DNA from: Schmidtea polychroa
Taxonomy: Eukaryota
Direction: 5' to 3'
Assembly: GCA_044892525.1 (NCBI GenBank)
Contig: CM097886.1
Location: 126,666,124 to 126,730,000, forward strand
Length of the DNA: 63,877 bases
A program made the translations under genes and the position numbers. Of the stretch, positions 9,474-30,845 are shown piece by piece. Under the pieces are notes generated by a model that had not been told where the DNA came from, made no database searches, and saw only the letters and a program-made list of their open reading frames with translations. Within the stretch, counting starts at the first letter, position 1; every line of letters begins with the position of its first letter.

Positions 9474-9651
9474 TAATAATGTAAAAATTTTTTTACGGTT
9501 ATCTAACATTTGAATAATATAAACATTACATATATTTACATATATATTTAAGCAATTATATTATTTATATTACATTTAGTCAGAGGCCTCCTAGAAGCCA
9601 TGGGTAAAACACTATTTTTCCGGAGTGGGAAAGAGCCGTTAATTCTGACAG

Positions 9652-10053
9652 ATGAGCAAAGAGAGTACCGTAGAGAATGTTAGTGATGTTTTGAGATATA
9701 TCATATTAATGACTGAAGACTCTTATACAGTGGCTCGTCAAGAGATGTGGAAATCAGATGGAATAGTGACAAAGGTCTGTCAAGTGCCTGAATTGACGGC
9801 ATCGTATTCAGAAGGTCAATGGACATCATTGGGTGATGCTCGAGGATTGAGTCATTCTATGTCTGCGCTCTACAATCCTCCAAGCAGCGGTGAATGCGCC
9901 ATTTGTCTAGACAATCCTCGAGATTGCCTATTAGAGCCTTGTCGACATTTGATTTTGTGCCAGAAATGTGCTTCCATGCTTTTATTACGAAATGATTACT
10001 GTCCAATGTGTCGGTCACAAATCCAGAGCACTGGAGGCGTTTATTTGTCCTAG
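9652..10053 (+). CDS. C3HC4 RING-finger protein (probably the 3' exon of a longer E3 ligase gene)
   Basis: CAICLDNPRDCLLEPCRHLILCQKC...CPMCR at the C-terminus; in-frame TGA just upstream and a cag acceptor-like site directly before the ATG. Confidence 0.75.
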   Translation: MSKESTVENVSDVLRYIILMTEDSYTVARQEMWKSDGIVTKVCQVPELTASYSEGQWTSLGDARGLSHSMSALYNPPSSGECAICLDNPRDCLLEPCRHLILCQKCASMLLLRNDYCPMCRSQIQSTGGVYLS

Positions 10054-10990: not shown

Positions 10991-13900
10991 TCAGCATCGC
11001 GTCTCGTATAATCCACTCTTACCGATGTAGCGCACCCATTTGATGACCTCATGGTCAGAATAGTTCAACTTCGATTCAAATACTTTCAGATATCGCACTT
11101 TGAATCCCGACGGTGCAAATGGAACCTAAATGGAGAAATTTAATGACAAATCAATACTGTGAGCACAATTTATAATTGACAATTTGTAAGGGAGCGTGAT
11201 ATACATTTGCATAATGGCTGTCACCCAATGACATCAATACATCATTGGCTACTCTTGCTCACTGTGTTCCTTGGCGCCTTGTATTGCGATTAGTCAAATA
11301 GANNNNNNNNNNNNNNNNNNNNNNNNNNNNNNNNNNNNNNNNNNNNNNNNNNNNNNNNNNNNNNNNNNNNNNNNNNNNNNNNNNNNNNNNNNNNNNNNNN
11401 NNNNNNNNNNNNNNNNNNNNNNNNNNNNNNNNNNNNNNNNNNNNNNNNNNNNNNNNNNNNNNNNNNNNNNNNNNACTCCAAACATACCTCGAAATTCATT
11501 GAGATCGGGGGACGAGTCCAGCGCTTCTGCCTATCACCGACAGTGAGTAAATCAATTTCCGCTGACAATTGGCAATCTTTCATTCCTGCCATTCGCTTGA
11601 TCCTGATTTAAGGAAAAATAGAATAAATCAATCAATAAAAAAATAGATATTCACTCACTTCCACACGATCGCGTTCTCAGCAGCCTTGTATTTCGCTTTG
11701 CCCTTCATGCAAATAACTTGCACTCCACTTGTGTTTGTAGGAGTCGGGATTCGCACTTCCACTTTCTGAGCGAAGAAATTTGGCTTGAAGTTTGCCTTGA
11801 CAACGAGCTTGACCTCCATGCGGGACTTGCCCATTTCTCGGACGAGTGGAATGACGCGGAATGGCAAATTAATCTCCTATATTACGACACGACAGATCAG
11901 CTAATCACCATCAGGCACAACTCAATCTTACCTTGGTCGTTCTGTACCGCATTAGCTCGAACTCTCCGTCGGGAGGAATAAAGGAAATCGTGTGCTCGGT
12001 CTCAAATCTGCCTAACTTGACGCACTGGTGGAATTGGCAATCGTCAATGGCGATACTTGACCCACTGCTCTTGTTGCCACTACTGGCACTGGAATTAGCA
12101 ATCAATATTGTGAGCTGTTAATGTTGATCAATATGTGATCCCTATCGAATCATATAGCGATAGGAAGGAGACCCAGGAAAGATTATGCTGTTGCAATTGC
12201 CTAATAAACCGAATTGGCGATGAAAAGATCTACATATTTCAAGGACAACGAGAAAGATGGATTTTAGGAGAAAACTAATAAATGGATTAAGTGCCCTAAT
12301 AGCACCAATTCAATAGTTGACACGTGAATGTTTAAGTGACAAATTGAGATTTGATCAATGTAACAGCATGTTTATTGTGGAAGCAGCATCAGTAATAGAC
12401 AATTAAACCCAAGCAAACAATAGCTGGCGACTAATGGATATCATAAACTTCTCAATTCATCAAGCGGATCAATCAATTGTGAGAGCATCCATTAGCTAGT
12501 AGATGAAATAATAAAAAAAATTATATCGATTGATATTAATGATAATTATTATCGGTGAATTTAGAAGAATCGGCGGCATTTAATAGTAGGGATCATAATA
12601 ATTTGCTCAGTTACGGTAAATAATTTTGGGTCATATTCACCGGGTGACTTGTTAGGCTTTCCTGATCAAATGTCATCAGATGAGATATATTTTATTGATC
12701 TATCTCACCAATCAATTGCACCAATCAATATCGATATGTTGAAATCATAAATTATCGATTACCAAGCAATCAATAGATGAATTTGCGCAGCGAATACTAA
12801 TCGAATCAATAAATGGCCCAATCGGGCGCATGCACATCGATACAGACACCTACCCAAGGTTATCATGCTTAGAATTGGCCCCTAACAACACCTTACATGC
12901 ATGCATTTTATCCCTAGCAACGGTTGCCATGCATTTAATTAGCCCCTCCTCATCGGGACAAACGGACAACAATCAAACAGTTGCCACCAACGACATGACA
13001 AGCGACAACGACAATATAAACAAACTCACCCGCTCGTCCTGAAATCCCTGCACAAGTGACACAAATAAATTCCATTCAATATACAATCAAATCTCATCTA
13101 ACTCACCCTTTATCATCGCGATTCTTGCTCTCGAGGCTCAGCTTATCGTTGAATCCAAATTTGCAGTCGGGCATGCCACTGAGGAATGATTTCATGATGA
13201 CCTTGCCCGCGACATGGGCGGATAGTATCTGACCTGTGAACAATATTGGTGCGTAAATTTGACTAGTACAATAGGGTGAAGGGATAGGAGTTATTTGTCC
13301 AACCTACCATACAGAACAGTATATTTACCTTGGGGTGACATCAGTAGGTTCACTGATTCGATCACGTCCAAAAATAGCTCGTTGCGACGATATTTTATGC
13401 CTTCTCGACGCCACCCGATCTGACCAGTAACTTGATTAGTAATTTGAGTGGTTTCCTCCTTCGTAGTCGACTTGATTCCAGCTTGAGTTATGTATGTCTT
13501 GAGTATGCCGGTGTCAGTATTTTGGGGGTAGCCATAATCGAGAATTTCTACAATATTGAGAATTTAATCGGATAATTTATTATTTCCTTTCAATCAGTTT
13601 CTATGGAGATTATACTAGATCAGTAAGCACTGCCAACAGACTGTCAATTCCGACAATGAATTATACAATAATTGATGCGGCACAAAAACAGTTTATTACA
13701 CAACAAAAAACTACAACTTTAAATAGGAATTTTTAAATTACAATTTAATTAATGATTAATTACTAGTAATAAAATTTATATGATTTAGTAGAAATGCTTA
13801 CCATCTAATAATTCATAAATCAGAACAAAATTATTTTTGATATTTTCTTCATTAACTTTTCCAAAATATTGTCCCATTACATCAAGCATACGATGCAAAA

Positions 13901-14141
13901 ATTGGAACACCATGACAGCATTGACATTAGTTCTAGCAACTGCACAAAGCCAAATACTACCTCGTTTAACATGAAAAAAACTAGTTCTAGCTATATTTGT
14001 TACAGGACTTCTGACTTGTTGCCTAGCATGAATAACATTGACTCTGAATGCGTCAACAACATTTCGACTTAAGTCATTACGAAAAATTCGAGAAATTAGC
14101 ACCTCTCCTTTATGATTATAAATAAAAAATCCCCCGATCAT
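10991..14141 (-). CDS. AP2M1: AP-2 complex subunit mu. Exons 13802-14141, 13329-13547, 13107-13233, 13030-13038 (or -13047), 11932-12088, 11659-11876, 11488-11602, 10991-11125; ~439 aa
   Basis: [18 protein letters not shown]..., [62 protein letters not shown]...YETRC*; all junctions GT-AG with consistent phases. Confidence 0.97.
11303..11474. other. Assembly gap (N run) inside the last AP2M1 intron
   Basis: 172 consecutive N. Confidence 1.
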
Positions 14142-15879
14142 TCTATTTTCATTACTTGATGAAAAATGTAAAGAAAATTACTAGAAATTAAATAAGGAAA
14201 ATTTTACAAATTTATATTATTTACTATATCCGATAAAACAAAGATTATCATAATAACATTGTTGAAAATATTATTAATGTGCTAAATGTTTTACGATAAA
14301 ATTCTCAATTAAATATATCTTGCTTTAATTTTTAGAATAATTAAAAAAAATTATTTGAATTTGATAAAAATTGTCGTGTTTTAAAGTTTATTTACAACTC
14401 TTTCAAACTTAGAAATATGTTTAATGTAATATAACCATAGTCAATAAATATGAGTAAAAAATTATGTAAATATCAGCATAATAATGCAAAGACAATATGT
14501 GGACAGACATCAAGGGAATGCGAGGGATCTTAGTCTCTGATTTGAAAGGTTCAGTGATAATAAGTGATTTTACTTGCACAACTGGGGCCTGATCTTATCA
14601 TTATTTTGCTCCTAGATAATCTCTATTTCTAGCTGTCTTATTTATATTTTGGTGAGTTACGAGTGGAAAAACTATACTCGATTTGATTTGTCAATACTTT
14701 CAATCCTAGCCCTTTCCCGCCGTAAATACATATAATTATTTAACAGATCGATAAATGTCATCATCACAAGGACTGCTAATGCCATGACACGCCCCTGGGT
14801 TAACGGGTTTACCATGGAAGGTATAGCGCCCTCTCCCCTCCTGTCATTTTTCATTCATTTTAAATCTTTGTCTTCGATTTTTATCTAAGATTTTCGTATC
14901 AATATTTTTGATTAATGAAAAACGAAATTGTATGAATTTGGTTTAATCTGGAACATCCTATGATCATGTATTTGGATTATATCATATTAATTCGTAGTTT
15001 ATCTAATGACTTGACTAATATTGTTAACTAATGTCGTCATATTTTATTTATTCTTCGAATATTTTGATTTCAATCTATTTCGAGTGGACAACACTCTTCT
15101 TGATCGCAAGATAGTAATATTTTTATTAGCCTTCGGTCATTTAATAACTTAAACTAAATTGGATATGAATAAAATGTTTAGTTTGAGAATATAATATAAA
15201 ACAAAATTTATAAAAAAAAGTTATATCAACACAGTATAAGCGTTATAACCATATAATCATATCAAAAATTATAAAAAATGTATTTTTGTTGATTGACTCT
15301 AGACCTCATTGAGTGGATATATATGCTTGTACCAATTTCTTTTTATTGTTGACTGGGTAGGGCTTAGCTGGTTTTCTTAAATTACTGATGTTGTTGGTTG
15401 TTGTTATTAGAGCTTCTAATGCGGGAAATAGTTCTTGTTTTGAATATATCAGAGCTGGTCCGACACCCGCATCCGTGTGTACTTCAGCCCGCATTTTAAT
15501 TATTTTCTGCGCCTATTCTTGAATCGCAATTCTTAAATCTCGCATAACTTCTAGGTCTTCATTGCGAAACTTCCTAAGATCCCTATTAGCTTGTGTAACT
15601 TTTTTAAATAGTCGGGCTGGAACCAAATGGGCTCCATTCGTCTGCAATGCCGGACTTTCGATTCGGATCGTTCCGCCAACCAAGCGCCTTCTTTAAATAG
15701 GCCTAAATCTTCTCGAAATGTTTCCATTTGACCCACTAAGCAATTTATAAAATTATGATAACACTGTGACAATGTTACGTCCACGAATACTGATAGTAAA
15801 TAAACATCACGATGATTAAATGTGGTGGGTTACCTGTGGTAAGCATTTGCATATCGACCATATTGACATTCAAAACAAT

Positions 15880-16969
15880 TGTTGAGGTCTCGATATTCGG
15901 GAACACTCAACTTACTGGTTCTTATATATATAACAAAACAAATAAAGACGTATATAAAGGTTTATTGAAAGTAAAATTTACCAAATATAATCCAATTACA
16001 ATTCTGAACAATCGATACTCGTTTGTTAAATTCTCCAACTGAAATGCGTGCAAAAGAAAGTATGTTTATTGTTATTTGTTGTGTGTGCGTGTTGTGTCTT
16101 CGTAAGCTTTTACTATTTGTGAATCGTTTTGTGCTGATTCAAATGATTGAATTATCCTCAGGATTTACCTTCGAATATAAAATCTTTGCGCTATTTTTGG
16201 GCGACTAAAACTAATTTTTCGTTGCTATTTATATAAAATTTTAGGGCAGCTGTTATTTTATAAATTAATTATTATTATTTTTTATAGTTTAAATAATTAG
16301 TTTTCGTTTTATTTCAAGAGGCACTTATTAATTATTCAATTTTTTCCATACGACTATTATCTTGTTTTGAAGAACACTTATTATTTCTAGAATATTTTTT
16401 CAGCTGATTATGAATAAAATTTTTCAACTGTTTAAAGAATTTATAAAATTTTTTGTTATATTGAATATCGAATTAAAATTAATTAAAATTTATTGTTATC
16501 AAATTAAAATTATTAAAATATTTTTCCCTTGTATATAATTAAGATGTTAACTAATAAAATCTATTAAATACATACACCCGATAAAATATTAACATTCTAC
16601 ATAAATATTCAAACGGAAAATAAGATAAAAATATTCAGACGGAAAATAAGATAAAATATACATATAAATAAGATAAAATATACATGGATTGTCACAATTG
16701 TTAATAAGATAGAATAGTCAATTATATTTACACAATTGTTGATAAGATAGAATATGCATAGTTTGCTCGACGATTTAGTCAGTTTTCAGATTGCTGGGTT
16801 GTCTTTGGGTTGAATTGATTTGCTTGAAATTGGGTTGGAATATTTATTGTTGGAATATTTATCTATCTGCGCTCTTCGGCGTACACATTTACTCTATATT
16901 TTTTGGGCCCTGTCCTGTAGTATTTGTCTAGGGTAAATGTAGTGATGGGCCTACCCTCATCATCTAACA
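15880..16969 (-). repeat. 3' LTR (1090 bp)
   Basis: Direct repeat of 28389-29478; minus strand begins TGTTAG and ends CTCAACA; one mismatch spotted by eye (16223 T vs 28732 C). Confidence 0.97.
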
Positions 16970-19193
16970 TTCCTCCCTGGGCCGTTAAGATAATGTCCGC
17001 ATTATCTCTTATACTGCGTACCAGCTCGATTTCGCTGTCTCTTATCAGCATCCTCGTTTTGTTGAACCCTTTTGCCAATGCGAGATTCAATGTGTCGCCA
17101 TCATTTATACGCCTTCCAAAATGTCGGGTCAATTCCTTTTCTGTAATCTGCTTCTTCTCCTTGGGTATGATAAAATTGGGTTCCTCCTCGATTGCGATAT
17201 CTGGTTCCGGTCCCAATTCGTCTATATCCATATTTTCCTCCTCTTGCTCGTTGATTGAGAAGTATTCCTCATCAGAGTCGAGGTCGCATTCCATTAGTTT
17301 TCCTGGATGGAATTTTGGTTCCTGTAATTCCAGTTTGACTGTTGCTTCAGGTATTCGTATTTTCTCCTCTTCGATGAATATTACGTCGTCATCGCTTTCC
17401 ATTAATTCATTTTCGAAAGTCCTGCGTGTCCCGTCTTTATTAAATTTCAATTCGATTTGCGATGGTTCTATATAAATATCTTCTTCATCGCCCGACATAT
17501 CCTCCAGACTACTTTCTTTAATGGGATATAACTGATCTTTCATTTGTTGTTCACTGAAGGCGCCTGAGTCCCATTTAACAACTTCTTCCCATTGATTTTC
17601 TACGATTGCATATATCACTTTGACGATCATCGTGGTTTGCCATGCTGGAAATGGTTCTGGTTCACGCAGCATTCTATTTATGCGTTTATCTTTGTCCCAC
17701 CTTTTGTGATGTCTGATTACCTGGTATGCCAGGTTGGACAATTTTATCTTGTGTGGCGCAACGTTTTTGACGTACGAGCACATAAATATATCTTCCGACA
17801 TTTCTCTAACTCCCATAACATTATAGAGATCTAATGTGAGAGCTTTGAGTTTTCCAATGATGTCGAATCCTACGACTATTTTTCCGCAAAGTAACTGTTG
17901 GATTTCGACCAGTGCTTCGTATTCATTTTTATTTCCGATGATATTTTCCTTGTTGGCCTTTGTCTTCTCTGGATAATAATGTAGGATTTTCGTTCTAGGT
18001 GTAATTTTCTCATCAAATATTGTTACACCCTTAAAATTCCGTATGCTGACCTCTACTGGCCTTAAGTTATTGTTGATGTCGCATACTAATTTTGCATCTA
18101 AAAACATTATCAGATGATGTCTCTCCGCCGTGGATAATTCTTTGTGGGTAAATGACATTTTTCTTCTGATGAAATCTCCATGCATATAAATGTTTGATTT
18201 AATGAGTTCCAACTGCTGAAATGGATTTGGGATAGTGGGTATGTATAATATTTCGATCGCTATGACACAGGGTAGGCTGTTCATTTGGACTATCAATTCA
18301 TTGTAGTCGTTTGGGACACTCCGATCATTTTTTGTAGTTTTTATTGTTATGGTGCAATTGCTCGTGGTGATCAACGGTATCCTTTGTTGGCATATTGCTA
18401 CCTCTGTTTTTGTGATGTGAAATAAAATTCTATGGGGCACTTTCTTTCCAGCTCTTGCAGCCTCCTCTGCATTGGGGAATTTGTCATACGCTCCGATTAA
18501 TTCTCTTAATTTGACTCTTCTTGCTTCGTTAAATTTGATAAGATGCAATTCCCTTTCTTCTATCTCGATTTTCATATCATTAGGAATGCATACTTGGTTG
18601 GGGAAACTTCTAATAGTAATGGGAGTACCATCTGTGCTGATCTTATTTTGCAGGTTTTTATAGAAACTGTGGTAGTGTTTCTGTAACATCGGCACATATT
18701 GCCTTATTTTCTGAGTTTCAGGATTTCGCTGAGGTTTTGTTCTTTGAGAATGCATGTGAACTGACGTATGTGGGTGCATTGATTTGTTTGAATGAAGACG
18801 ATTGGATTGATTAGATTGGCTGATTTGATTTTGGGTTATTGGAGGATCGATTTGATTAGACTGATTTATTTGGGGATTGATTTGACTGAATTGATTCGAT
18901 AAACTTCTTATTACTATTCTAAAAACAAATAATAAATAATTATGCTTGTTGCGCATTTGAGGTTTAACCTTATACGCAGTTATATAAATATTAATATATA
19001 TACTTTTATTATATATCATTGACCAATTTATGTAATTAAAATTTTTTAAGTTATTATACCAGTGTGGACAGAGTATATTGTCCAGGGATATATTTGTCCA
19101 AGTGAAAATGCCCTGGTGCTTCTTTGACCAGTCGGTGCCGATACCGCTGCCTTTTCCACTTGTACTTTTTATAAACTTGTACACTAGTGACAA
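16863..19193 (-). CDS. Accessory ORF3 with a degenerate REX4/ISG20-like DEDDh exonuclease domain (~17600-18115) and an acidic tail. The track start is TTG; first ATG at ~19019
   Basis: FLDAKLV...VSIRNFKGVTIFDEKITP...LLCGKIVVGFDI...KLSNLAYQVI parallels REX4/ISG20 vAlDCEMV...vSiVn..G.vlyD.yVkP...lkgrIlVGHal...sLk.La. Confidence 0.7.
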   Translation of the reverse strand: MSLVYKFIKSTSGKGSGIGTDWSKKHQGIFTWTNISLDNILCPHWYNNLKNFNYINWSMIYNKSIYINIYITAYKVKPQMRNKHNYLLFVFRIVIRSLSNQFSQINPQINQSNQIDPPITQNQISQSNQSNRLHSNKSMHPHTSVHMHSQRTKPQRNPETQKIRQYVPMLQKHYHSFYKNLQNKISTDGTPITIRSFPNQVCIPNDMKIEIEERELHLIKFNEARRVKLRELIGAYDKFPNAEEAARAGKKVPHRILFHITKTEVAICQQRIPLITTSNCTITIKTTKNDRSVPNDYNELIVQMNSLPCVIAIEILYIPTIPNPFQQLELIKSNIYMHGDFIRRKMSFTHKELSTAERHHLIMFLDAKLVCDINNNLRPVEVSIRNFKGVTIFDEKITPRTKILHYYPEKTKANKENIIGNKNEYEALVEIQQLLCGKIVVGFDIIGKLKALTLDLYNVMGVREMSEDIFMCSYVKNVAPHKIKLSNLAYQVIRHHKRWDKDKRINRMLREPEPFPAWQTTMIVKVIYAIVENQWEEVVKWDSGAFSEQQMKDQLYPIKESSLEDMSGDEEDIYIEPSQIELKFNKDGTRRTFENELMESDDDVIFIEEEKIRIPEATVKLELQEPKFHPGKLMECDLDSDEEYFSINEQEEENMDIDELGPEPDIAIEEEPNFIIPKEKKQITEKELTRHFGRRINDGDTLNLALAKGFNKTRMLIRDSEIELVRSIRDNADIILTAQGGMLDDEGRPITTFTLDKYYRTGPKKYRVNVYAEERR
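16970..16978 (-). promoter_or_regulatory. Polypurine tract
   Basis: Minus strand AGGGAGGAA immediately abuts TGTTAG of the 3' LTR. Confidence 0.85.
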
Positions 19194-22100
19194 TTGCTAA
19201 AATCGCGAATGATACTACACTTGTAGCTATTACATAAAAAGGCCATTGTGGTTTACTTGCTTTCTTTTGAAAGACTTGTAATTCGTTCCAGTTATTTATA
19301 ACTATCGGTTTTCCTGTAGGTAATTTTATCAGTTTCCTATCAGACTGTCTTGGATTTTTCATTATTAATTTTTTATATATTTGTCTAACCGCTTTAAATG
19401 TCGTTTTCCTATATATATTCGTTATCGTTTGTGATATAGGATGTGTGGGTGTTGAATTTATAGTAGTTGTTTTTCTGGTTGTTGATATCTTCTTTCTTTT
19501 TGGTTTTCTTATTCTAAGTCTGTTTATTTTAGTAGTTTTTAGTCTTTTGCACCCTATCTGTGATGTGTCAACTAATGTATTCCATTGTGCACAAAGTGTG
19601 TAATTAGTGTTGGGTTGTAGATTTCCGAATTCAACATTATCCCCTCTTTCAAATTCATTAGTTGATCTATTTTCAATTTTTTTCATAAGTTTGGGTATAT
19701 TATCCCTAGTTTCCAGATACAAGTCTCTTATTGGTGATTTATTTAAGTTATATACTCTAATTTTATATGGTGAAATGTTGATTAAAATATCTTCAGCCAT
19801 GTATTCTACTGAGTGTATGTTCTCGTTTTCTACTTCAGTTGATTTACACAACCCTATAATTGTTAAAAATGTCGCTGCCATCATCAGTGCTTTTTGTGAT
19901 CGTAATCCATATTTGTGAGGTGGTTTTTCTACTAACTCAGTTTCTGCTAATTTGCATCTGTTAACATGTACTATTATAGGATCCTCATTTTTATGTTTTT
20001 GTAAATGCAGGTTTTCATGTATTACTTTTACTACCTCGTATGGTCCTTTAAATGGTCTTGCTAATTTAGTTGTTTTGCCTTTTCCTACTTGTGGAGACAT
20101 AAGTCTAACCTTATCTCCCACTTTAAAATTATGAGGTTTGCTATTTTTATCGTAATCTGCTTTATATTGTTCTTGTCTGAATTTAACTTTTAAATTTGCA
20201 ACCTTGTATACCTCTTGTAATCTCTCTTGCATTAATGTTACATAATCTGGCGCATCTAAATATTGTGATACTCGAGGCTCAAAAATTGTATCAATCGGTG
20301 TCGCAGGCTCTCTTAAGAACATTAGAAAATATGGTGAATATCCCGTTGTCTCATTTGGTGTGATATTATGGATGTATGTACATTGATTAACGTATTCATC
20401 CCAATCATTTTGGTTTTTTCCCACAAACACAGCTAATCTACTTAGCAATGTCCCATTGAATCTCTCTACTAAACCATCGGTCTGAGGGTGGTATGCTGTT
20501 GTATTGATTTTATGCATGTTAAATATGTTAGCTACTCTTTTTATAGTTTCACTCATGAAATTTTTCCCTTTATCTGTTAATAATTTTCTTGGTGTACCGA
20601 TTTTAAAGATTATTTTTTCCACAAGTAATTTAGCTACTGTTTCTGCTGTTTCATCTTTTGTAGGAAATGCCTCTGCCCATTTTGTAAAATAATCGCTAAA
20701 AACTAGTATGTGCTTATTCCCCTTAATTGTTGTGGGTAGTTTACACAAAAAATCCATTGCGCACAATTCCATTGGTGATGTTGTGGCTGGGATTGGATGT
20801 AAAGGTGCTTTAGTTTTTGTTCCTGTATTTTTTCTAGTTGCGCATATTGTGCATGCATTACACCATCTCTTGACATCCTTTTTCAAATCGTCCCAATAAT
20901 ATTTTTGCATCAATCTGCTTGCTGTTTTCCTACTTGATAAATGACCTCCTAAAGCACCATCGTGGTATTGTAACAGAAGAATTTGTCTTAATCTTTGTGG
21001 TACTACTATTAATTGTTTACCGCTAAAATCCTCAATAACAATTAACTTCTTACAGATTTTATACTTTTGGTTAGTTCCCTTTTTTATTTCTTCTCTTATC
21101 TTGAAGAGTTCTGGATCTTTCATTTGTTCCTCATATATTTCTATTGGTTTTTCGGTTACTAATGCAAAAACTTCTAGTGCTCCTAACTCTGGAATTCGTG
21201 ATAATGCATCTGCATTCCTGTTTATTCTACCTGGTTTATATGCAATCTTTATGTGCATGTCTTGTATTTTCATTGCCCATTTTAACAGTCTACTGGATGT
21301 ATCTTTATGTTTCCATAACCCTTCTAATGGCTTATGGTCTGTTCTAATTACTACTTCAGTTCCATATATGTATGGTTTAAATTGTTTTAATGCAAAAACT
21401 ATAGCATAACATTCTTTCTCAATTGTTGAGTACCTAATCTGTGCTCCTTTTAATGTTTTGCTTGCATAAGCTATTACATAATCTTTACCCTTTTCCTCTT
21501 CTTGTCCTAAGACTGCCCCTACGGCCTTCCCGCTGGCGTCTGTCATGACAATAAACTGTTTTTTAAAGTCTGGGTATCTTAGTATCGGTGCTGTTATTAA
21601 TTTTTCTTTTAGTTGATCAAAAGCTTTTTGATGTTCATCTTTCCATTTCTTTTGTGGCTTGTTAATTTTATCGTTAATTTCCTGCACTATTAACACTCCT
21701 TTACTCTCTCCCTTTGTTTTGACTCCTTTTGTTAATTCAATTAGTGGTGCTGCTATTTTTGCATAATCTTGTATGAATTTACGATAATATCCTGTGAGAC
21801 CTAAAAATCCCTGTACTTGTTGTAATGTTTTTGGAACTGGGAATTTTTTAACTACTTCAATTTTATCGGGATTAGGTATTATACCATCTACTGTAACTAT
21901 ATGTCCCAAGAATAATGCTGAGGGTTCTGCCCATTTACACTTAGTGGGTTTTATTTTGATTTTTGCTTTTCTTAATCTTTCTAGTACGTTAGCTATATCT
22001 TTTAGATGTTCCTCAAATGTTTTTGATGAAATTAATATATCATCCATGTATACTGCGCAATGTTGTACGTCTACTAATACTGTATTCATTAAACGTTGAA

Positions 22101-24696
22101 ATGTTGCTGGCGCATTAGTTAACCCAAAAGGTAATCTTGTATATTCATATAAACCGTCTTCTATCACAAAAGCTGTCTTTTCCGCATCCCCCTCTTCCAT
22201 TTGAATTTGCATGTAGCCTTTATTTGCATCTATTACTGTGAAATATTTAGTATCTCTAAGTTTATCATATTGTTCTTGTGCTTTTGGGAATGGGTATGAG
22301 TCTTTTACTGTTACATCATTTAATTTACGATAATCAATGCACATTCGAATTTCCCCGTCTTTCTTTCTAACTGGTACGATAGGTGATGCCCATTGTGAAA
22401 AACTTTGTTTTATTACGCCTGCCTCTTTTAATTCTTTAATTTGTCGTTTTATTTCCTCCCTCAGTTTATATGGTACACTATAGGGTCTCTGTTTTATTGG
22501 TCTAGCATTCCCTGTATCGATTACATGTTTGATAATGTCAGTATCTCCTAAATCAGATTCGTGTTTTGCAAAAACATCACTGTATTCGTCAAGTAATATT
22601 TGTAGTTGTAGTTGTTGTGTTTCGTTTAGATAATTATTATTTATTTTAATTTTATCATAAAATTTGATATTATTCGCTCTACTCTGTTCGACCATTCTTT
22701 CACTGACATCCTTCGTCATCGACATCTCACATACTTCAAATGTTTGCTCTAATTCACCTTTGAACAACTTTCCCAATTTTGTACCTTTATGAATTTTTAC
22801 TTTATTTCTTTCGTAATTCGCGATTCTTATTGGAATTATCCCATTATTTGGAATTACACACTCGTCTGTTAACATTACGTTATGATTTCGTGATATTGCC
22901 GTTTCAGGCTCGAAAATGAAAGTGTCCTCACTTTTAACATTAACTTTTACTGGAATTATATGATCACTTTGATACTCTAGTTCAAATGTCTCTAATGCAA
23001 TTACCTCAGTAAATCTTGCGTCTTGATATATTGCCTTCCGTTTGACTGTACTATCCGTTAAATCGATTACACAGTTTTTTAACTTTTTGAGTATGTCCAT
23101 CCCAAGGACACATACGCATTTACATTCTGCTACTACCTTGAAGACATGTTCAACCACTTGATCCGAAAAGTGGACTGTTAATTCGATATCTCCTTTTAAT
23201 GGTATGTAATGTGATGATAATGAAATTACTCTATCTCTTGTGCTCACGATATTTTTCCTTTGGTTTCCGGTTAACTGATCTTCACGAATCATAGAAGCTG
23301 CTGCTCCTGTGTCACATAATGCCTTTATTATCGTATCATTTATCACTATTTGTAATTTAGGCCTTACTTCATTTAACCCTTCTAATATATCGTCAAGTTC
23401 TAACCCGTAACATCCATAAGTTTTCCTTGGAACACCATGACAATTACCATTTTCACCTGGGATTCTTATTTCAATATTATTTCTCAATTCTGTCAATTGT
23501 TCTCTTTGATTATCATATAACCCAATATGTGGTTGCTCAATATTTTCTGATCTGTTTGTATCGTCCTCTTTTTCATTGGTGATCATTATTTCACCCTCTT
23601 CCCTTCGACTTTTCATCCGCTTGATTTCCTTATCGTGCCTCGCAGTGATCAAATATTTGGCTATGAATGGACATAAACATGCTACCATTTTATATGAATT
23701 ACCAAAGACTTGTCTCAGTTGTCTTAACGAAACTAATGATGAGCAAATCATTTTCAATAGTGCTACTGTATAATATATGCCCAGTATAGTGGAAAATGTG
23801 TTACCGAGAATCGCAAAATATCCCCATATGCTGTATAATACTCTATACACAACTTTCCTGAAGTGCTCTTTTGATAATAATACATCAAAGTTGTAATTCC
23901 CTCCATAACTATTTTCGATGATTTTGTTTACCATGATAGAAAGAACTTTTTCTTTTTCATGAGGAAATAACATATGTTTTCTGGCGCTCTCTATCGCCTC
24001 TCTCGTATACATCCCATTGTTATCCATTTCGTTGACTTCCTGAAATTCTAACTTTTTCTCAAGTTCAGTTAGTTCTAGTTTTTGTGGTTTAGTCGCTTCT
24101 TTTCTATCTGACATTGTAATCCACATATCATCATTTATTTTGTATAATGGATCTAATAGATTAGTACATTTATCAATTTTTCTCGGAACATAGTCTTTAT
24201 CTGTTAATATCCTTATTATTGGTTGGAGGTATACAGTTTCTCCTTTATACACTACTGGCAATTCGTTTGTGCACTTATTATTCGTTGCTAACGATACGCT
24301 AACCGGTTTACACTGAAATGTTTGTATTACTTTGCCGACAACTCTTGCAAATGTCCCTTTTTCTGCAAATAAAATTGGTGCCATTAAATCTGGGTTTGTG
24401 ACTGCAACCGCCATCTTTGTTCTTAAAATTTCTCTGTTAAATTTACAATCGTTTGCAATAGTTGCTTGATATACTTTGTCCAATTGTACTAACTGATGAT
24501 GATAAAAGTAGTCGATTTTATTATTAAAATATGACGCTAGCTTGACATCGAATTTATCTATTCTTGATTTTGCCTCTTTAATTTCACTTCCGCTGATATA
24601 AATTCCCTCGTAATTTGTTTGTATGACTGCCTTACCACATTTAATACTTTCACCTTTTCCCACAAACCTCATCGCCTCTGTTTTAGAATCTGACAT
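19054..24696 (-). CDS. pol: Polyprotein: glycoprotein C-terminal half + TM, then PR, RT, RNase H, integrase (GPY/F), then a second signal peptide, ectodomain and TM
   Basis: 1880-aa ORF; LCDTGA (23305-23313), CIDYRKLN, YMDD (22039-22050), TDASG, HHCC, MDF/TDKG/VERFN, RPFKGPY; hydrophobic stretches flank the enzymatic core. Confidence 0.95.
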   Translation of the reverse strand: MSDSKTEAMRFVGKGESIKCGKAVIQTNYEGIYISGSEIKEAKSRIDKFDVKLASYFNNKIDYFYHHQLVQLDKVYQATIANDCKFNREILRTKMAVAVTNPDLMAPILFAEKGTFARVVGKVIQTFQCKPVSVSLATNNKCTNELPVVYKGETVYLQPIIRILTDKDYVPRKIDKCTNLLDPLYKINDDMWITMSDRKEATKPQKLELTELEKKLEFQEVNEMDNNGMYTREAIESARKHMLFPHEKEKVLSIMVNKIIENSYGGNYNFDVLLSKEHFRKVVYRVLYSIWGYFAILGNTFSTILGIYYTVALLKMICSSLVSLRQLRQVFGNSYKMVACLCPFIAKYLITARHDKEIKRMKSRREEGEIMITNEKEDDTNRSENIEQPHIGLYDNQREQLTELRNNIEIRIPGENGNCHGVPRKTYGCYGLELDDILEGLNEVRPKLQIVINDTIIKALCDTGAAASMIREDQLTGNQRKNIVSTRDRVISLSSHYIPLKGDIELTVHFSDQVVEHVFKVVAECKCVCVLGMDILKKLKNCVIDLTDSTVKRKAIYQDARFTEVIALETFELEYQSDHIIPVKVNVKSEDTFIFEPETAISRNHNVMLTDECVIPNNGIIPIRIANYERNKVKIHKGTKLGKLFKGELEQTFEVCEMSMTKDVSERMVEQSRANNIKFYDKIKINNNYLNETQQLQLQILLDEYSDVFAKHESDLGDTDIIKHVIDTGNARPIKQRPYSVPYKLREEIKRQIKELKEAGVIKQSFSQWASPIVPVRKKDGEIRMCIDYRKLNDVTVKDSYPFPKAQEQYDKLRDTKYFTVIDANKGYMQIQMEEGDAEKTAFVIEDGLYEYTRLPFGLTNAPATFQRLMNTVLVDVQHCAVYMDDILISSKTFEEHLKDIANVLERLRKAKIKIKPTKCKWAEPSALFLGHIVTVDGIIPNPDKIEVVKKFPVPKTLQQVQGFLGLTGYYRKFIQDYAKIAAPLIELTKGVKTKGESKGVLIVQEINDKINKPQKKWKDEHQKAFDQLKEKLITAPILRYPDFKKQFIVMTDASGKAVGAVLGQEEEKGKDYVIAYASKTLKGAQIRYSTIEKECYAIVFALKQFKPYIYGTEVVIRTDHKPLEGLWKHKDTSSRLLKWAMKIQDMHIKIAYKPGRINRNADALSRIPELGALEVFALVTEKPIEIYEEQMKDPELFKIREEIKKGTNQKYKICKKLIVIEDFSGKQLIVVPQRLRQILLLQYHDGALGGHLSSRKTASRLMQKYYWDDLKKDVKRWCNACTICATRKNTGTKTKAPLHPIPATTSPMELCAMDFLCKLPTTIKGNKHILVFSDYFTKWAEAFPTKDETAETVAKLLVEKIIFKIGTPRKLLTDKGKNFMSETIKRVANIFNMHKINTTAYHPQTDGLVERFNGTLLSRLAVFVGKNQNDWDEYVNQCTYIHNITPNETTGYSPYFLMFLREPATPIDTIFEPRVSQYLDAPDYVTLMQERLQEVYKVANLKVKFRQEQYKADYDKNSKPHNFKVGDKVRLMSPQVGKGKTTKLARPFKGPYEVVKVIHENLHLQKHKNEDPIIVHVNRCKLAETELVEKPPHKYGLRSQKALMMAATFLTIIGLCKSTEVENENIHSVEYMAEDILINISPYKIRVYNLNKSPIRDLYLETRDNIPKLMKKIENRSTNEFERGDNVEFGNLQPNTNYTLCAQWNTLVDTSQIGCKRLKTTKINRLRIRKPKRKKISTTRKTTTINSTPTHPISQTITNIYRKTTFKAVRQIYKKLIMKNPRQSDRKLIKLPTGKPIVINNWNELQVFQKKASKPQWPFYVIATSVVSFAILAIVTSVQVYKKYKWKRQRYRHRLVKEAPGHFHLDKYIPGQYTLSTLV

Positions 24697-25094
24697 GTAT
24701 ATTGTTGAATTATCGTTGCTCGTCGTTTTTGGTCTTTGATATTCTTGGAATCTACATCCGTGAACTGTTTACATCGTATCGTTCTGAATTTCAGTGTCTT
24801 TAGTTTAGTTAGATGGCATTCGTATTTATTTACCTTGTATATGATCATTGACTCACCTGTATCGCAGCTTGTCTCATCTAATGTACAGAACTTATGTGTC
24901 ATCATTTTCTTTGATGAACTATCAAATGACGCCTTGAATTTCCTTAATTCAATATAATATTGTCATCTTACTACAATATTGTCTGCCACGTGCCCCCATA
25001 TTTTATATGTTCCTCCTTCACAATATCCTCCTATTGATGACCATCCAACGACATTTACTAATTGCCTTACTCGTGCTCCTACCTGAGCATTTAA
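24669..25094 (-). pseudogene. Disrupted middle part of the glycoprotein ectodomain
   Basis: The gag frame continues past TAG (25095) and TGA (~24957) as LNAQVG...GGYCEGGTY...VVR*QYYIEL...FCTLDETSCDTG, then shifts frame into the pol ORF near 24770. Confidence 0.85.
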
Positions 25095-28000
25095 CTAAAA
25101 TCCATCCGGCGTTTTTATCTTTTTTGTTTTAAATGCATTTTCACATTCGATTGGTGCTATTATTATCGCTTCTGGTGCCCATGTTGGAGTTAATATTGTT
25201 CTCGCTATTTTATTACATACAAAACTTTCCTCTGAATATTTAACGATACATTCTCCTGCCTCAGTGTGAATGAAGTCAGACTCTTGATATATGTGAAAAA
25301 TCTTTGGATCTGCAACAATTAGTTTTGTTGGATTAGCCTCTGGGCAATTTTCTACATCTAATAATGAATATTTCTGTCCCCACTTAGGATTCTGACAGTC
25401 ATACGCTATGATCGCATTATTCCCTTTTATCAGATCTAATAACAATGTTATTACTATAATTACTATTGACATTGTCGACTTTCTTTCTTTTTGACTTGGT
25501 TTCATAGTTGTTTTATTTACTAGATTTTTTACTGTTTCCTCTGTATTATCTATTTCTACATTAATATTATCTTCTACGCTTTCCTGAGCACTTTCTATTA
25601 GACTCTCATCATACAGTATTTTCCATCCTCCCTTTAATTTTATCCATGGCATAGCATCTATCTTTAATTTATTATATATCATTTTAGCGATATTTTCTAT
25701 TTGATTCTTTGGATTCAATCGCAAAAGTTTCTTGTATCTTTCTATTAAATATGCCATTGCCGTAATCACTTTATCTCGATTAACTCCTGTTGTAAATAAT
25801 ATCTTTAACACTGTCTCTTCATTTGCTTCCTCTGCACTCAATTCTCTAATCTCTTTTTCCATTAATTTAATCTTTTTAACTATATTTTTTATTAACGCTG
25901 ATGGTTTTGCTTCCGGAAATCGTCTCGTATTCATTGCTTTAACTAACTCTGTTATCATTTTTATATCCTTGTCATTATCCTGATTTTTTGGGACTTCCTG
26001 TCTCATATTATTTGCAATATCTCTTAAACGCTCTGCTGCCTTTCTGTCATCTGACTTTTCGGCAATTTCCGATTTTCGAGGCCTTCCTCTACCTCGTCTC
26101 ATCGTCTCTGCGTCCTGCATATTTGCTTGTTTCGCAATTTTTTCTATTGTCTCATGTAAATTATCATATTTAGTATCAATAGGTTTAAAGATTTCCTCGC
26201 TAGCTGTTGGTGACCTCATTGCCCCTCCTGAAGAAGCATCCCACAATCTAAATAATTTATCATAGTCATTTTCGTCGTTTATACTCAATTCTACTGATGG
26301 AGTTGGTGTATCAATTTCTTTACTTTCTTGCCTTTCTATTACTGCAGAAATAATATTGTTATCAATGACGTTTACTCCATAGTCAATTATATATTCATTA
26401 TTCATCATTTCTACGCCGTTAAAATACAGTTTCACTTTATCATTATCTCCCAATTTCTCGGGCCAATTGGCTCTAGCCATCTGTTTCACTTTATTCACTT
26501 TTGTGCAAACATGTACCCCTGTACTACGCATAAGTAATCTCGAAAGGTCCTTTGCCTCAATAGTTATATTTAATGACTCATGTAATTTCTGATTTTTTCT
26601 CACAAATTCACCATAGCATTTTATCATTTCTTTCAATTCTATTTCTAATTCAAATACTCTTGTCATATTTTGTCTCTTTACCATTAGTGGTATCAAATTT
26701 CTCAAATATTCTAAGTCAATTCCTTCGACTTGAACTTTATTTATTATACGCAATGTCTCATTATCATCATAAGGCCATTTTTCTAATGTCTCTTTCAATT
26801 CTTCTTTTAACTCTTTACATCTATTTGTTTCTGCAAGAAATTTCTCATCCGCTTCTCTTGCTTCACGAAACTCATCATTATCTATATCTACATCATTGGT
26901 AAAACACTGAAACTCATTTAATGACATTTCTAACTTCCTCTCAATAAGTCTCCCATATTGAGTTTTAAATTCTTTTAATTCCTCCCTCAAACTGTTTATT
27001 TCATCATTAGCTGATATCAACTCAGCGCTATTAATCTGTTTTATCTCAGGCTCATTTTTAAATCTCACTCTATTAGGCGATTCGCTTCGCGCATTATTGC
27101 ATACTTTAGCTAAGTGACCATATTTCTGGCAGTTATAACATTTGATTTGTCCATTAAAATTTACTTTATCTCTACCATCATAATTATAAGGGCTCCCTCG
27201 CCTTTCTCTGTATGAATTCTGTCTATATGGACTTGTCTGTCTACGTCTCAATTCATTTGTATTATCTCTATTATCGTGTCTATTATTTCTATCATATTTA
27301 TTATTTCTCAAATTATTTCTACTAAAATCGACTCTATTATCTCTCGTATAATTATTTCTATTATATTCATAACGATTGTCTCTATCGAAAGTATTTCTAT
27401 TGTTTCTATTCTCAAAATTTCTATTTCTCACATTGTCAAACCTTCTCCTGTTTTCAGGCGATTGAATTCTATCTGGACTCGGGCTTACCCTTCGTCTATT
27501 TTTTACAAAGTTCAAATATAGTTGTTTCATCTCCTCCCAGGGGATGTTGTCATCTGACTTACCCAACTCAGATTTTACCTCTATGGGTTTTTGGATTTCC
27601 ATTGCATCTACATGTGAACTAAATCTATCTCGTTGTATTGCTTCTATACGCTTAGCTTTATGAACTAATTCGTTTAAATTACAATATTCTACCATAATTA
27701 GTGCTTTATATAAATATTTTTGTATACCATTCCAAAACTGATCCTCAATTAATTTTGCTGTGTGCTCCCCTGCACCAAATGCTTTTTTCGCTAACTCCGT
27801 AATTGTATATACATATTCACCAACTGATTCTCTAGTACCCTGATACCTGTTTCTAAATTTTTGAACGTTTATCTTTTGTAAATCGCTATCGATTACTATT
27901 TCTGCTCTCAGATATCTTACGAGTTGCTCAAAATTATTTCCTTTACATTCTAAGTTATTGTATGCCTGTAACGCATAACCTTTTAAATATAGTGGTATTC

Positions 28001-28175
28001 TCATTTTTAACTCATCAGGTGTCCACCCGCAAGCTTCTGCATACTGAGCGATCTCAGTGAAAAAATCGTCGAACTTTTCAGGCTCTCCTCTATATGGTTC
28101 TACTGGTAAAATTTTTATGTAATTATTATTATTATTATTCATTTTATAGACTATTCTATTTCTGAGATTATACAC
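25095..28175 (-). CDS. gag: Gag (capsid, CCHC knuckle, long extension with AT-hook) fused to an internal signal peptide and the N-terminus of a chuvirus-G-like glycoprotein
   Basis: YRGEPEKFDDFF...WTPDE..LYLKGYA capsid motif; CYNCQKYGHLAKVC; RRGRGRPRK; MSIVIIVITLLLDLIKGNNA followed by IIAYDC...YSLLDVENC. Confidence 0.9.
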   Translation of the reverse strand: MYNLRNRIVYKMNNNNNNYIKILPVEPYRGEPEKFDDFFTEIAQYAEACGWTPDELKMRIPLYLKGYALQAYNNLECKGNNFEQLVRYLRAEIVIDSDLQKINVQKFRNRYQGTRESVGEYVYTITELAKKAFGAGEHTAKLIEDQFWNGIQKYLYKALIMVEYCNLNELVHKAKRIEAIQRDRFSSHVDAMEIQKPIEVKSELGKSDDNIPWEEMKQLYLNFVKNRRRVSPSPDRIQSPENRRRFDNVRNRNFENRNNRNTFDRDNRYEYNRNNYTRDNRVDFSRNNLRNNKYDRNNRHDNRDNTNELRRRQTSPYRQNSYRERRGSPYNYDGRDKVNFNGQIKCYNCQKYGHLAKVCNNARSESPNRVRFKNEPEIKQINSAELISANDEINSLREELKEFKTQYGRLIERKLEMSLNEFQCFTNDVDIDNDEFREAREADEKFLAETNRCKELKEELKETLEKWPYDDNETLRIINKVQVEGIDLEYLRNLIPLMVKRQNMTRVFELEIELKEMIKCYGEFVRKNQKLHESLNITIEAKDLSRLLMRSTGVHVCTKVNKVKQMARANWPEKLGDNDKVKLYFNGVEMMNNEYIIDYGVNVIDNNIISAVIERQESKEIDTPTPSVELSINDENDYDKLFRLWDASSGGAMRSPTASEEIFKPIDTKYDNLHETIEKIAKQANMQDAETMRRGRGRPRKSEIAEKSDDRKAAERLRDIANNMRQEVPKNQDNDKDIKMITELVKAMNTRRFPEAKPSALIKNIVKKIKLMEKEIRELSAEEANEETVLKILFTTGVNRDKVITAMAYLIERYKKLLRLNPKNQIENIAKMIYNKLKIDAMPWIKLKGGWKILYDESLIESAQESVEDNINVEIDNTEETVKNLVNKTTMKPSQKERKSTMSIVIIVITLLLDLIKGNNAIIAYDCQNPKWGQKYSLLDVENCPEANPTKLIVADPKIFHIYQESDFIHTEAGECIVKYSEESFVCNKIARTILTPTWAPEAIIIAPIECENAFKTKKIKTPDGF

Positions 28176-28368
28176 TATTTCGGGTTGATTATCTATTTTA
28201 TCTTTTCGAATTATTTAATAATTTTCAAAACTGAATTTATTTATTTAAAAATTGGTCAATGATATTGTTTTTTTTTTTTATAAATATATTTTCCCAATAT
28301 AAAATACTATACCCTCTGATCTCAATTCCTATCCCCCAAATTGTGAATAACAATAATTGATTTTAAAG

Positions 28369-28388: not shown

Positions 28389-29478
28389 TGTTGAGGTCTC
28401 GATATTCGGGAACACTCAACTTACTGGTTCTTATATATATAACAAAACAAATAAAGACGTATATAAAGGTTTATTGAAAGTAAAATTTACCAAATATAAT
28501 CCAATTACAATTCTGAACAATCGATACTCGTTTGTTAAATTCTCCAACTGAAATGCGTGCAAAAGAAAGTATGTTTATTGTTATTTGTTGTGTGTGCGTG
28601 TTGTGTCTTCGTAAGCTTTTACTATTTGTGAATCGTTTTGTGCTGATTCAAATGATTGAATTATCCTCAGGATTTACCTTCGAATATAAAATCTTTGCGC
28701 TATTTTTGGGCGACTAAAACTAATTTTTCGTCGCTATTTATATAAAATTTTAGGGCAGCTGTTATTTTATAAATTAATTATTATTATTTTTTATAGTTTA
28801 AATAATTAGTTTTCGTTTTATTTCAAGAGGCACTTATTAATTATTCAATTTTTTCCATACGACTATTATCTTGTTTTGAAGAACACTTATTATTTCTAGA
28901 ATATTTTTTCAGCTGATTATGAATAAAATTTTTCAACTGTTTAAAGAATTTATAAAATTTTTTGTTATATTGAATATCGAATTAAAATTAATTAAAATTT
29001 ATTGTTATCAAATTAAAATTATTAAAATATTTTTCCCTTGTATATAATTAAGATGTTAACTAATAAAATCTATTAAATACATACACCCGATAAAATATTA
29101 ACATTCTACATAAATATTCAAACGGAAAATAAGATAAAAATATTCAGACGGAAAATAAGATAAAATATACATATAAATAAGATAAAATATACATGGATTG
29201 TCACAATTGTTAATAAGATAGAATAGTCAATTATATTTACACAATTGTTGATAAGATAGAATATGCATAGTTTGCTCGACGATTTAGTCAGTTTTCAGAT
29301 TGCTGGGTTGTCTTTGGGTTGAATTGATTTGCTTGAAATTGGGTTGGAATATTTATTGTTGGAATATTTATCTATCTGCGCTCTTCGGCGTACACATTTA
29401 CTCTATATTTTTTGGGCCCTGTCCTGTAGTATTTGTCTAGGGTAAATGTAGTGATGGGCCTACCCTCATCATCTAACA
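28389..29478 (-). repeat. 5' LTR (1090 bp)
   Basis: Direct repeat of 15880-16969, followed by the PBS on the minus strand. Confidence 0.97.
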
Positions 29479-29503
29479 CAATACAATATATGATGAATTT
29501 CCT

Positions 29504-29640
29504 ATATTGAATTTCAAAACAATATTCAAAATAGCCAATATTTCATATTGAATTTCAAAACAATATTCAAAATAGCCAATATTTCATATTGAATTTCAAA
29601 ACAATATTCAATACTTATTGAATTTCAAAGCAGTATTCAA
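29504..29640. repeat. 41-bp tandem repeat (~2.6 copies plus a degenerate copy), likely hAT subterminal array
   Basis: atattgaatttcaaaacaatattcaaaatagccaatatttc at 29504, 29545 and 29586; adjacent to a hAT transposase fragment. Confidence 0.8.
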
Positions 29641-29699
29641 TATATATTGTTTTTGTCAATATATTGATTTGTTCAATAAACTGATATGGAGGATTCAGG

Positions 29700-30010
29700 A
29701 GCCCACGATCCTCTCAGTTCAAGGTAGTCAAAATAGCACTGCTTTGACATCTGTTGCCAAGGAAATGAAAGATTGCCTATTACTAATCAAGCCACCAAAG
29801 GGAACTGATGCACTTGACTGGTGGAGGATTCATAGTGAAAGGTTTCCATTACTTTCTTCCATGGCAAGACACTACTTAGCCATTCCAGCATCCTCAGCTT
29901 CTTCAGAAAGGACATTTTCCAAAACAGGTCAAATTGTAAACTGTCACCGAAAAAATTTAGCACCTGAACAGGTGAACAAATTGATATTCATTCATGAAAA
30001 CTTGAATAAA
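29700..30010 (+). mobile_element. hAT transposase C-terminal dimerisation domain fragment
   Basis: LDWWRIHSERFPLLSSMARHYLAIPASSASSERTFSKTG...LAPEQVNKLIFIHEN. Confidence 0.9.
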
Positions 30011-30845
30011 GTTTCAATTTCAAAACTGGACTTGTTGTTTTATTTTTTATCTTTAAATATATAAACAACAATCAAGAATTAAGATTAGACACAAATAAAC
30101 AATGAATGTATGAAATTATTATTTTAAATTTTTAAAAATGAGGAATTTCCTTTGGAGCCTCTTCGTTCAGATATCGATTCGGATCCTTCTCTCGTTTTTA
30201 TTCATTTCTCGATTCCGCAAATTTTTATTAATCGATTTCTGGATAAACTTTATCAATAACTTCCTAACTATAATCGAATTATAATCATAATTATAACTAT
30301 AATCGAATTCATGTTAAGGTTAAGAGGTACCCTAATTCAATTCATTATCTCCATCGAGCATATATTCGCCTCGAAGTACCTAAAATTGACTAACTTCATA
30401 GAAATGTCTCGAATAATTTTAAATTACTTGATATAAATTGTTGTTTTTACGAAATTAAAATTTTTACAAATAATTCAACAATTCTTACTACTGCATGCCT
30501 GCTGACAAATTCGAATTCCTTCAGATATCCTTTCTTTGTGATGAGCTTGTTGCTGGGAATCTTTCTTCTAGAACGTTGATCATTCGCTCTTCTGCCTTAA
30601 CTAAGTCTCCAAATTATCATCTGTATTAATTCGAGAAACAGAGAATCCGAATTTTGTTGACCGGCCTCACTCATACTCTTTTCCCTCTAGACTAAACTAC
30701 TTACGGGTATTTATATGTCCATACTTGTGTTATCTGTAGTGCATAAAAATTGTGATTATTCGCAAAATATTCCAATTATGATTTCAGTTTATATTAATAA
30801 TTTAACGAAATTTTATCGACTGTTATCATCAAACAAATTGTTTAA

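Follow-up and report, generated by a model that had tools for sequence, protein, structure and literature searches.

In retroviruses and in retrotransposons with an env, binding and fusion are both ascribed to a single envelope gene. The paramyxoviruses, with H/HN/G and F, are a two-glycoprotein enveloped system. Among retroelements, the GAG-ENV-POL layout has been published for errantiviruses of flatworms, nematodes and bryozoans (Chary and Hayashi, eLife 2026, PMC13524379; cited here, like all other articles given by PMC number, from parts of the article). The same source describes that gB of herpes simplex virus (HSV) needs gD and gH/gL, and that the entry of gB-type errantiviruses is unknown. 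Here we analyzed 63,877 nucleotides of Schmidtea polychroa DNA (assembly GCA_044892525.1, contig CM097886.1, positions 126,666,124 to 126,730,000; this whole stretch is called the window), which contain on the minus strand a 13.6 kb Ty3/gypsy GAG-ENV-POL element with an env of the gB/chuvirus type. Behind the integrase its reading frame continues into an extension, which is very probably a real, cleaved type I membrane protein.

The window element is similar to the gB-type errantiviruses in its Ty3/gypsy Pol, env between gag and pol, long terminal repeats (LTRs) and many young copies, and its env agrees with that of Smed_errantivirus_3, a planarian element, at 58 of 71 residues when compared by eye (PMC13524379). 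The word ‘fibronectin’ is absent from the main text of that article, as are ‘fibronectin’, ‘FN3’ and ‘FNIII’ from its 7 supplementary files, figures aside. Burro/GYPSM1 (Arkhipova and Yushenova 2019, PMC6431247) shares the single polyprotein, Gag, CCHC, a BCL2-like domain and env before the protease, and the Bcl-2-like domain preceding the env signal in the window (25623-25826) parallels these elements. Burro is larger than 25 kb and encodes ~4900-5100 aa with MATH, BIR and ankyrin domains, whereas the window element has 13.6 kb, ~3050 codons and none of these domains by Pfam; the available text of the review does not contain ‘fibronectin’. The Vesta/Juno LTR elements of bdelloid rotifers also have extra membrane or DEDDy exonuclease genes behind pol, but their transmembrane (TM) proteins are separate ORF3s that replace env and do not accompany it, and the module is not mentioned in the available text (PMC5408684). 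The polyprotein of the planarian nidovirus PSCNV, for which cleavage by signal peptidase is predicted, also contains a fibronectin-type module and a Thr-rich region, but this module is FN2, an unrelated fold in an unrelated virus (PMC6211748). A full-text literature search returned no description of the module; Repbase entries, figures and bioRxiv supplements lay outside its scope, and a prior mention is possible. Altogether, the element type is already published, whereas the module behind its integrase is real, conserved and apparently undescribed, and its function is what we infer below.

The extension comprises the last 279 codons and the stop codon of a minus-strand open reading frame (ORF, 24768-19054). 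A preliminary description of this stretch had reported that the ORF continues for ~280 aa past the GPY/F motif, and all motifs quoted there were recovered in frame, at 19893 (KALMM), 19644 (GDNVEFG), 19620 (LQPNTNY), 19488 (ISTTRK), 19245 (WPFYV) and 19173 (YKKYK), with the stop at 19056-19054. A signal-like segment (19840-19893), which begins ~50 codons past the integrase GPY, is followed by a predicted FN3 domain (19537-19797), a basic and Thr-rich stalk (19246-19536), one TM segment (19174-19245) and finally a basic stop-transfer and a 39-residue tail ending in S-T-L-V (19054-19173). In this stretch, with 67.5% AT, the other two frames contain 28 and 30 stops, and none of 20000 base shuffles of the extension was free of stops. 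Hydropathy reached 2.3 in 11-residue windows at extension residues 2-17 and exceeded 2.0 in 19-residue windows at residues 217-240 (2.05-2.18 for the TM segment, which is a helix in the model), and a signal-like together with a TM-like hydrophobic segment occurred in 26 of 20000 residue shuffles. The signal peptide call is based on hydropathy and on small residues at -3/-1 of the predicted cut, which were conserved in the subfamilies seen. The TM segment, given as 23 aa in the preliminary description, has to be corrected, as the string quoted there has 24 letters.

Five subfamilies of genomic copies were seen, A (95-100% identity), B (~77%), C (~56%) and D and E (25-28% in the FN3 part). After the last Cys of the window copy, 101 residues hold 29 K+R, 2 D+E and 19 S+T, so the stalk is more basic than Thr-rich; the ectodomain side of the TM segment is basic as well as its C-terminal side. 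A Thr-rich part (12 of 26 residues S/T in subfamily A) is present also in B and C but absent from D and E, which have a short basic linker instead. An S/T-rich, mucin-like stalk is not a family-wide feature. Two of five N-x-S/T sites are without a following Pro, one to three sequons are usable per subfamily, and an N-Y-T sequon lies in the FN3 domain. A furin site in the stalk was considered and dropped, as it was not conserved, and no YXX-hydrophobic sorting signal was seen when the tail was searched for it.

When the putative FN3 domain was modelled from the single sequence, the result was poor (pLDDT 49.6), and its structural matches were mostly FN3 with some C2 domains. The model built from 14 aligned natural copies was better (pLDDT 74.8, pTM 0.68) and contained six clear strands plus a short C', in keeping with the seven-strand beta sandwich of FN3, though the scores are moderate. 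With this model nearly all top rows in Foldseek were FN3 domains (best E 0.006, TMq up to 0.60), in agreement with the FN3-like fold that had been proposed. In VIA, the best match was IFNAR1 (Z 8.3, root mean square deviation 3.0, 79 residues aligned), tied with Dscam, Sevenless, fibronectin and others, and identity in these structural matches was 5-16%. The Atlas fn3 score, taken as a lead, was 0.88, and weak Pfam matches were to Fn3_ELFN (E 0.07-0.09) and Interfer-bind (E 0.026). In the E-F loop motif L-x-P-x-T-x-Y, N-L was invariant and Tyr was present in at least 90% of the 14 rows, while Pro was replaced in subfamily E; the strand-B Trp typical of FN3 was missing from this alignment. A sequence search of the PDB with the FN3 alignment gave only one row, a chitinase FN3 stretch with E 0.56. 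Two Cys (codons 19593 and 19551) were invariant and placed symmetrically about the F-G hairpin, and because they face each other there, the model suggests a disulfide and a luminal location of the domain. The domain is thus predicted to be a divergent member of the FN3 fold and not a profile-level family member, with good but not overwhelming support.

We studied the extension also in other genomic copies. In about 64 of 118 genomic matches, counted by hand, the integrase end and the extension were read without a stop. For a closer view 74 loci were chosen from the best matches, a biased sample, and 71 of these contained the integrase end motif. In 62 of the 71 loci the integrase end was followed in frame by the signal motif, and three further loci were open to the end with a changed signal motif. 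Reading was open to the PDZ-like C-terminal motif in 43 of the 71, and the remaining 28 had scattered breaks. Subfamilies D and E, at only 25-28% identity, kept the layout with N-L, both Cys, the TM segment and the tail. As side observations, an in-frame deletion in one copy (L065) removed everything from the middle of FN3 through the TM segment and left the tail, and in a decayed copy (L067) the whole module was missing.

The ratio of nonsynonymous to synonymous substitutions (dN/dS) was determined pairwise for natural copies of A, B and C, using five between-subfamily pairs. The whole extension gave 0.17-0.28 and the integrase end 0.03-0.10. Within the extension, values were 0.14-0.15 for the FN3 part (two pairs saturated), 0.07-0.21 for the TM segment and 0.12-0.29 for the tail, whereas the first half of the stalk was under weak constraint (0.32-0.79 overall, 0.64-0.79 in comparisons with A). 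Between A and C, Fisher P was 6e-16 for the whole extension and 7e-10 for FN3, but a non-significant 0.17 for the first half of the stalk. The extension is under purifying selection, and this selection is strong on FN3, TM segment and tail. Altogether, the model, the fold matches, the open copies and the dN/dS values support the earlier claim that the integrase is fused to another membrane protein, of type I and with an FN3 fold, and indicate that it is kept by selection. Neither of the outcomes named in advance as speaking against the claim, a missing signal peptide or FN3 fold in predictions and an absent or frameshifted extension in other intact copies, was observed.

Subfamilies A and B differed in a particular manner. 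Their env ectodomains were 98-99% identical, whereas the extension was only 76% identical, and nucleotide identity dropped along the element, being 0.96-0.99 in the integrase, 0.73-0.91 in the extension and 0.51-0.74 behind that. Because of this drop, the sequences suggest that the 3' region either goes back to an older split or was exchanged as a 3' cassette.

A class I PDZ-binding motif has S/T at position -2 and a hydrophobic residue at position 0. The copies end in T-L-V (A), S-L-V (B), T-W-V (C) and T-L-C (D and E), so the tail is, as judged from its residues, a class I PDZ-binding-like C-terminus that is weaker in D and E. This feature had been overlooked in the preliminary description. 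PDZ domains were located in the host.

An env profile search (68 matches) revealed a second env-bearing family, which is abundant, has frames of 3334 codons and an integrase 50% identical to that of the window element. The integrase was reached in 10 of 12 loci fetched (L096-L107, e.g. L096:3002-4282 on the minus strand); seven of the ten read through a whole module, two were broken within the ectodomain and one was broken at once. This family ends with a signal, a 311-residue ectodomain (Atlas fn3 0.92), a TM segment and a tail with PPxY, a late-domain or WW-binding type motif, and the C-terminus E-T-R-L. Four database proteins were matched through the integrase only. Two of these, P0005 and P0006, which are mutually related (E 8e-22), end with a signal, a larger ectodomain with E-F-like motifs, a TM segment and T-x-V (T-A-V and T-V-V, respectively), whereas P0007 and P0008 did not show the module. 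The chance of an end composed of signal, ectodomain, TM segment and PDZ-type terminus is ~0.026 per protein. In a 15-row integrase tree module-bearing members were found in both clades. P0005, P0006 and P0007 have in addition one or more extra aspartic-protease-like domains after the integrase, which precede the membrane module in P0005 and P0006, and P0006 also has ankyrin repeats.

The modules of these three groups had no sequence or profile similarity beyond control level, and Pfam gave no FN3 match for subfamilies D and E, the second family, P0005 or P0006. In hmmsearch between family modules, 259 and 137 of 300 shuffles were equally good by full score, i.e. the matches were within the shuffle range, and hhalign gave P 0.015-0.02 compared with 0.026 for the reversed control. 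These comparisons gave no support for homology among modules of different families. Searches for relatives outside were likewise negative: none of 367 candidates was a homolog of the extension at E 0.01, a 9-row profile of A-C had no match in 1.84 billion representatives, and the P0005 module found only P0005 itself in large protein collections. Fn3_ELFN, used to look for a donor gene in the host, matched 35 rows below the cut-off, and the six that were read were noise or an unrelated polymerase-like repeat. The latter is a repeated family (L110-L119) with frames of ~1460-1480 codons, which we take to be Maverick/Polinton-type DNA polymerase-like and a chance match. The preliminary description had offered a captured host receptor fragment that anchors Pol to membranes as an alternative. 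As an old origin such a capture is plausible, but no host or database homolog was found; the Pol anchor fits poorly, as discussed below.

What can be read directly is one frame, two internal hydrophobic signals, TM segments and a conserved tail. In uninterrupted copies this is a single frame of ~3050 codons with the order Gag-Bcl2-Env-PR-RT-RH-IN-module (protease, PR; reverse transcriptase, RT; RNase H, RH; integrase, IN). We propose that it would be translated as one polyprotein and threaded through the membrane of the endoplasmic reticulum twice, by the signal before Env (25472) and by the second one after the integrase (19893). Signal peptidase would then free both Env and the module, which would be made in step with Env; such release has been predicted for other viral polyproteins, that of the planarian nidovirus among them (PMC6211748). 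The signal stub would remain on the integrase unless the element protease trims there. The freed product would be a type I protein of 260 residues with one disulfide-locked FN3 domain, a stalk that is basic or Thr-rich, one TM segment and a tail in the cytosol. By docking to PDZ scaffolds of the host, its conserved C-terminal S/T-x-hydrophobic motif could keep the protein where cells touch or particles bud; the FN3 domain and the basic stalk might grip a neighbouring cell or the matrix and bring Env near enough to fuse.

Whether the product aids attachment or cell-to-cell passage beside the gB-type fusogen is, in our estimate, an evenly balanced question. The near-identical env and divergent extension of A and B would be expected of a conserved fusogen with a variable host-contact partner. 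In paramyxoviruses and, with gD and gH/gL next to gB, in herpesviruses, a conserved fusogen is likewise accompanied by a second membrane protein that changes faster; this is an analogy only, since no sequence or fold link of the module to attachment proteins of two-glycoprotein viruses was found, and the module differs from them in consisting of one FN3 domain with which a Pol polyprotein ends. More tentatively still, flatworm gB-type errantiviruses might in general be two-glycoprotein retroelements, with an FN3-type attachment protein released behind the integrase, PDZ-docked and exchanged or re-captured as a specificity module in a role like that of gD/gH/gL; we hold this broader version to be possible, with the balance somewhat against it.

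Several points weigh against this reading. Concerning the fold, there was no Foldseek match with E <0.001, a Z of about 8 is not far from the values reached by common arrangements, the Pfam fn3 match (PF00041; E 0.033, 14.9 bits) was below the 25-bit cut-off, and the Atlas scores (0.88-0.92) serve as leads only. With their terminal Cys, D and E have a weaker PDZ end, and they are without the Thr-rich stalk. The class III fusogens rhabdovirus G and baculovirus GP64 act without a partner. The faster divergence of the extension would come partly from an exchange of the whole 3' region, and ORF3, the next frame of the element, diverges too. Modules of different families may be separate captures with different jobs, and the other host-directed cargo of the element, Bcl-2-like and exonuclease-like, fits a host-modulating role as well. 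Attachment, binding and entry of the module into particles thus stand as a proposal drawn from sequence.

The strongest competitor is that the type I protein acts on the host cell, as a decoy or dominant-negative receptor fragment, as a modulator of junctions or signalling, or as a block to superinfection, which we consider less likely than a role in entry. The arrangement of FN3, TM segment and PDZ tail resembles the membrane-proximal end of adhesion receptors such as SALM/LRFN, which likewise have a membrane-proximal FN3, one TM segment and a PDZ-binding tail (PMC5895706), and FN3 domains of cytokine receptors ranked with the best fold matches, on a par with many others. Compared with SALM/LRFN and class II cytokine receptors, the module differs, however, in having no leucine-rich repeat or immunoglobulin domains and no sequence homolog. 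The cargo carried by the element and the joint divergence of extension and ORF3 would suit a host modulator. On the other hand, the module shares its frame with Env and would be produced in step with it, it was present in both env-bearing integrase clades examined and absent after the integrase of an env-less gypsy at 58.9-61.3 kb of the window (one decayed case), and no host paralog to mimic was found.

A second possibility concerns only the route of expression and is compatible with either function: the module might be translated alone, from a spliced transcript or an internal start, with the Met codons at 19884 as its beginning. The hydrophobic segment opens with a Met in each of the subfamilies A-E, but there was no stop between integrase and module in any subfamily, no pyrimidine-rich acceptor before the Met in the five subfamily junctions shown, and no Met at the head of the signals in the second family and P0005/P0006; we regard this route as improbable. 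In the RNA contigs of six runs no joint with splice-type ends was listed at the extension, and as these contigs are uninformative on starts and strand, no conclusion was drawn from them.

Slightly less probable again is that the main role of the extension is to hold Pol or the nascent polyprotein at membranes, with the first hydrophobic segment remaining uncut. The fusion to the integrase would agree with this, as would the finding that in the window element's family no protease domain lies between integrase and signal; the signal segment would stay on the integrase unless the element's protease cuts there. Yet the first segment is short, its 19-residue windows staying at or below 1.4, and the subfamilies seen have small residues at -3/-1; a cleavable signal would part FN3, TM segment and tail from the integrase. 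The invariant Cys that face each other across strands suggest that the domain is luminal, the TM segment of Env is already upstream of Pol, and the selection on FN3 and tail would be needless for a mere anchor. In P0005 and P0006, the second protease-like domain between integrase and signal also suggests separation. Neutral read-through or passive cargo without function is very improbable and already largely refuted by dN/dS, since the first half of the stalk, not significantly below 1 against A, and the copies L067 and L065 stand against an open frame, strong purifying selection on FN3, TM segment and tail and a layout kept in five subfamilies.

The remaining parts of the window copy, all on the minus strand, are as follows. 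The 5' LTR (28389-29478) and the 3' LTR (15880-16969) are 1090 bp each; in element sense a tRNA primer-binding-like site follows the former, and a purine tract precedes the latter. The insertion appears young because the LTR pair is 99.8% identical over a 1094-bp alignment and is flanked by the 4-bp target-site duplication CAAT (15876-15879 and 29479-29482). ORF1 (25095-28214) encodes Gag with a CCHC knuckle, the Bcl-2-like domain (~25826-25623), the internal signal from 25472 and the first part of env, before the frame closes at 25095; its Pfam matches, zf-CCHC (E 6e-4), Bcl-2 (PF00452, E 3.5e-5) and PF24664 (E 2.5e-6), are all three below curated cut-offs. The remaining env ectodomain with the env TM segment (~23787-23731, by hydropathy) is at 23530-24768 (PF24664, E 1e-70), and protease, RT (YMDD at 22050), RNase H and integrase (HHCC, core, GPY at 20046) follow at 19897-23370, with the PR-RT-RH-IN order present by Pfam. 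As env is broken between 25095 and 24768, the extension closes a frame of 1904 codons in the window copy, whereas env is uninterrupted in other copies, and open frames of 3051-3090 codons hold 11 of the 118 genomic matches. The open frame of ORF3 (16863-19196, first Met 18956) starts within the extension, with an overlap of its last 47 codons, and extends into the 3' LTR. It contains an ISG20-like exonuclease domain (~18050-17820; ISG20 1wlj, E 2e-4) in which the acidic motifs look altered, and it was found in subfamilies A-E.

Two further retroelements were present in the window. At 42333-45764 on the plus strand there is a decayed second env-pol element with ~30% env and 39-47% RT identity, and the env-less gypsy pol mentioned above (58932-61254, minus strand) is decayed, has no env match, and its integrase ends without a signal or TM module. 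On the 3' LTR side, at a distance of ~1.7 kb, lie what we take to be exons of an AP-2 mu-like gene (13291-14177, minus strand), and just beyond the 5' LTR is presumably a C-terminal fragment of a hAT transposase (29576-30064, plus strand). Two other ORFs are, by our assignment, Pescadillo-like (36863-38509, minus strand) and of the RING-finger type (9649-10053, plus strand).

The further membrane protein that is conserved in the polyprotein provides a concrete candidate partner for the gB-type env. If it acts in this way, the element would be a retroelement with divided entry functions, which may help to explain the spread of such abundant elements among the cells of a flatworm. If it acts on the host instead, the module would be surface cargo of a new kind, carried in addition to the Bcl-2-like and exonuclease-like domains.

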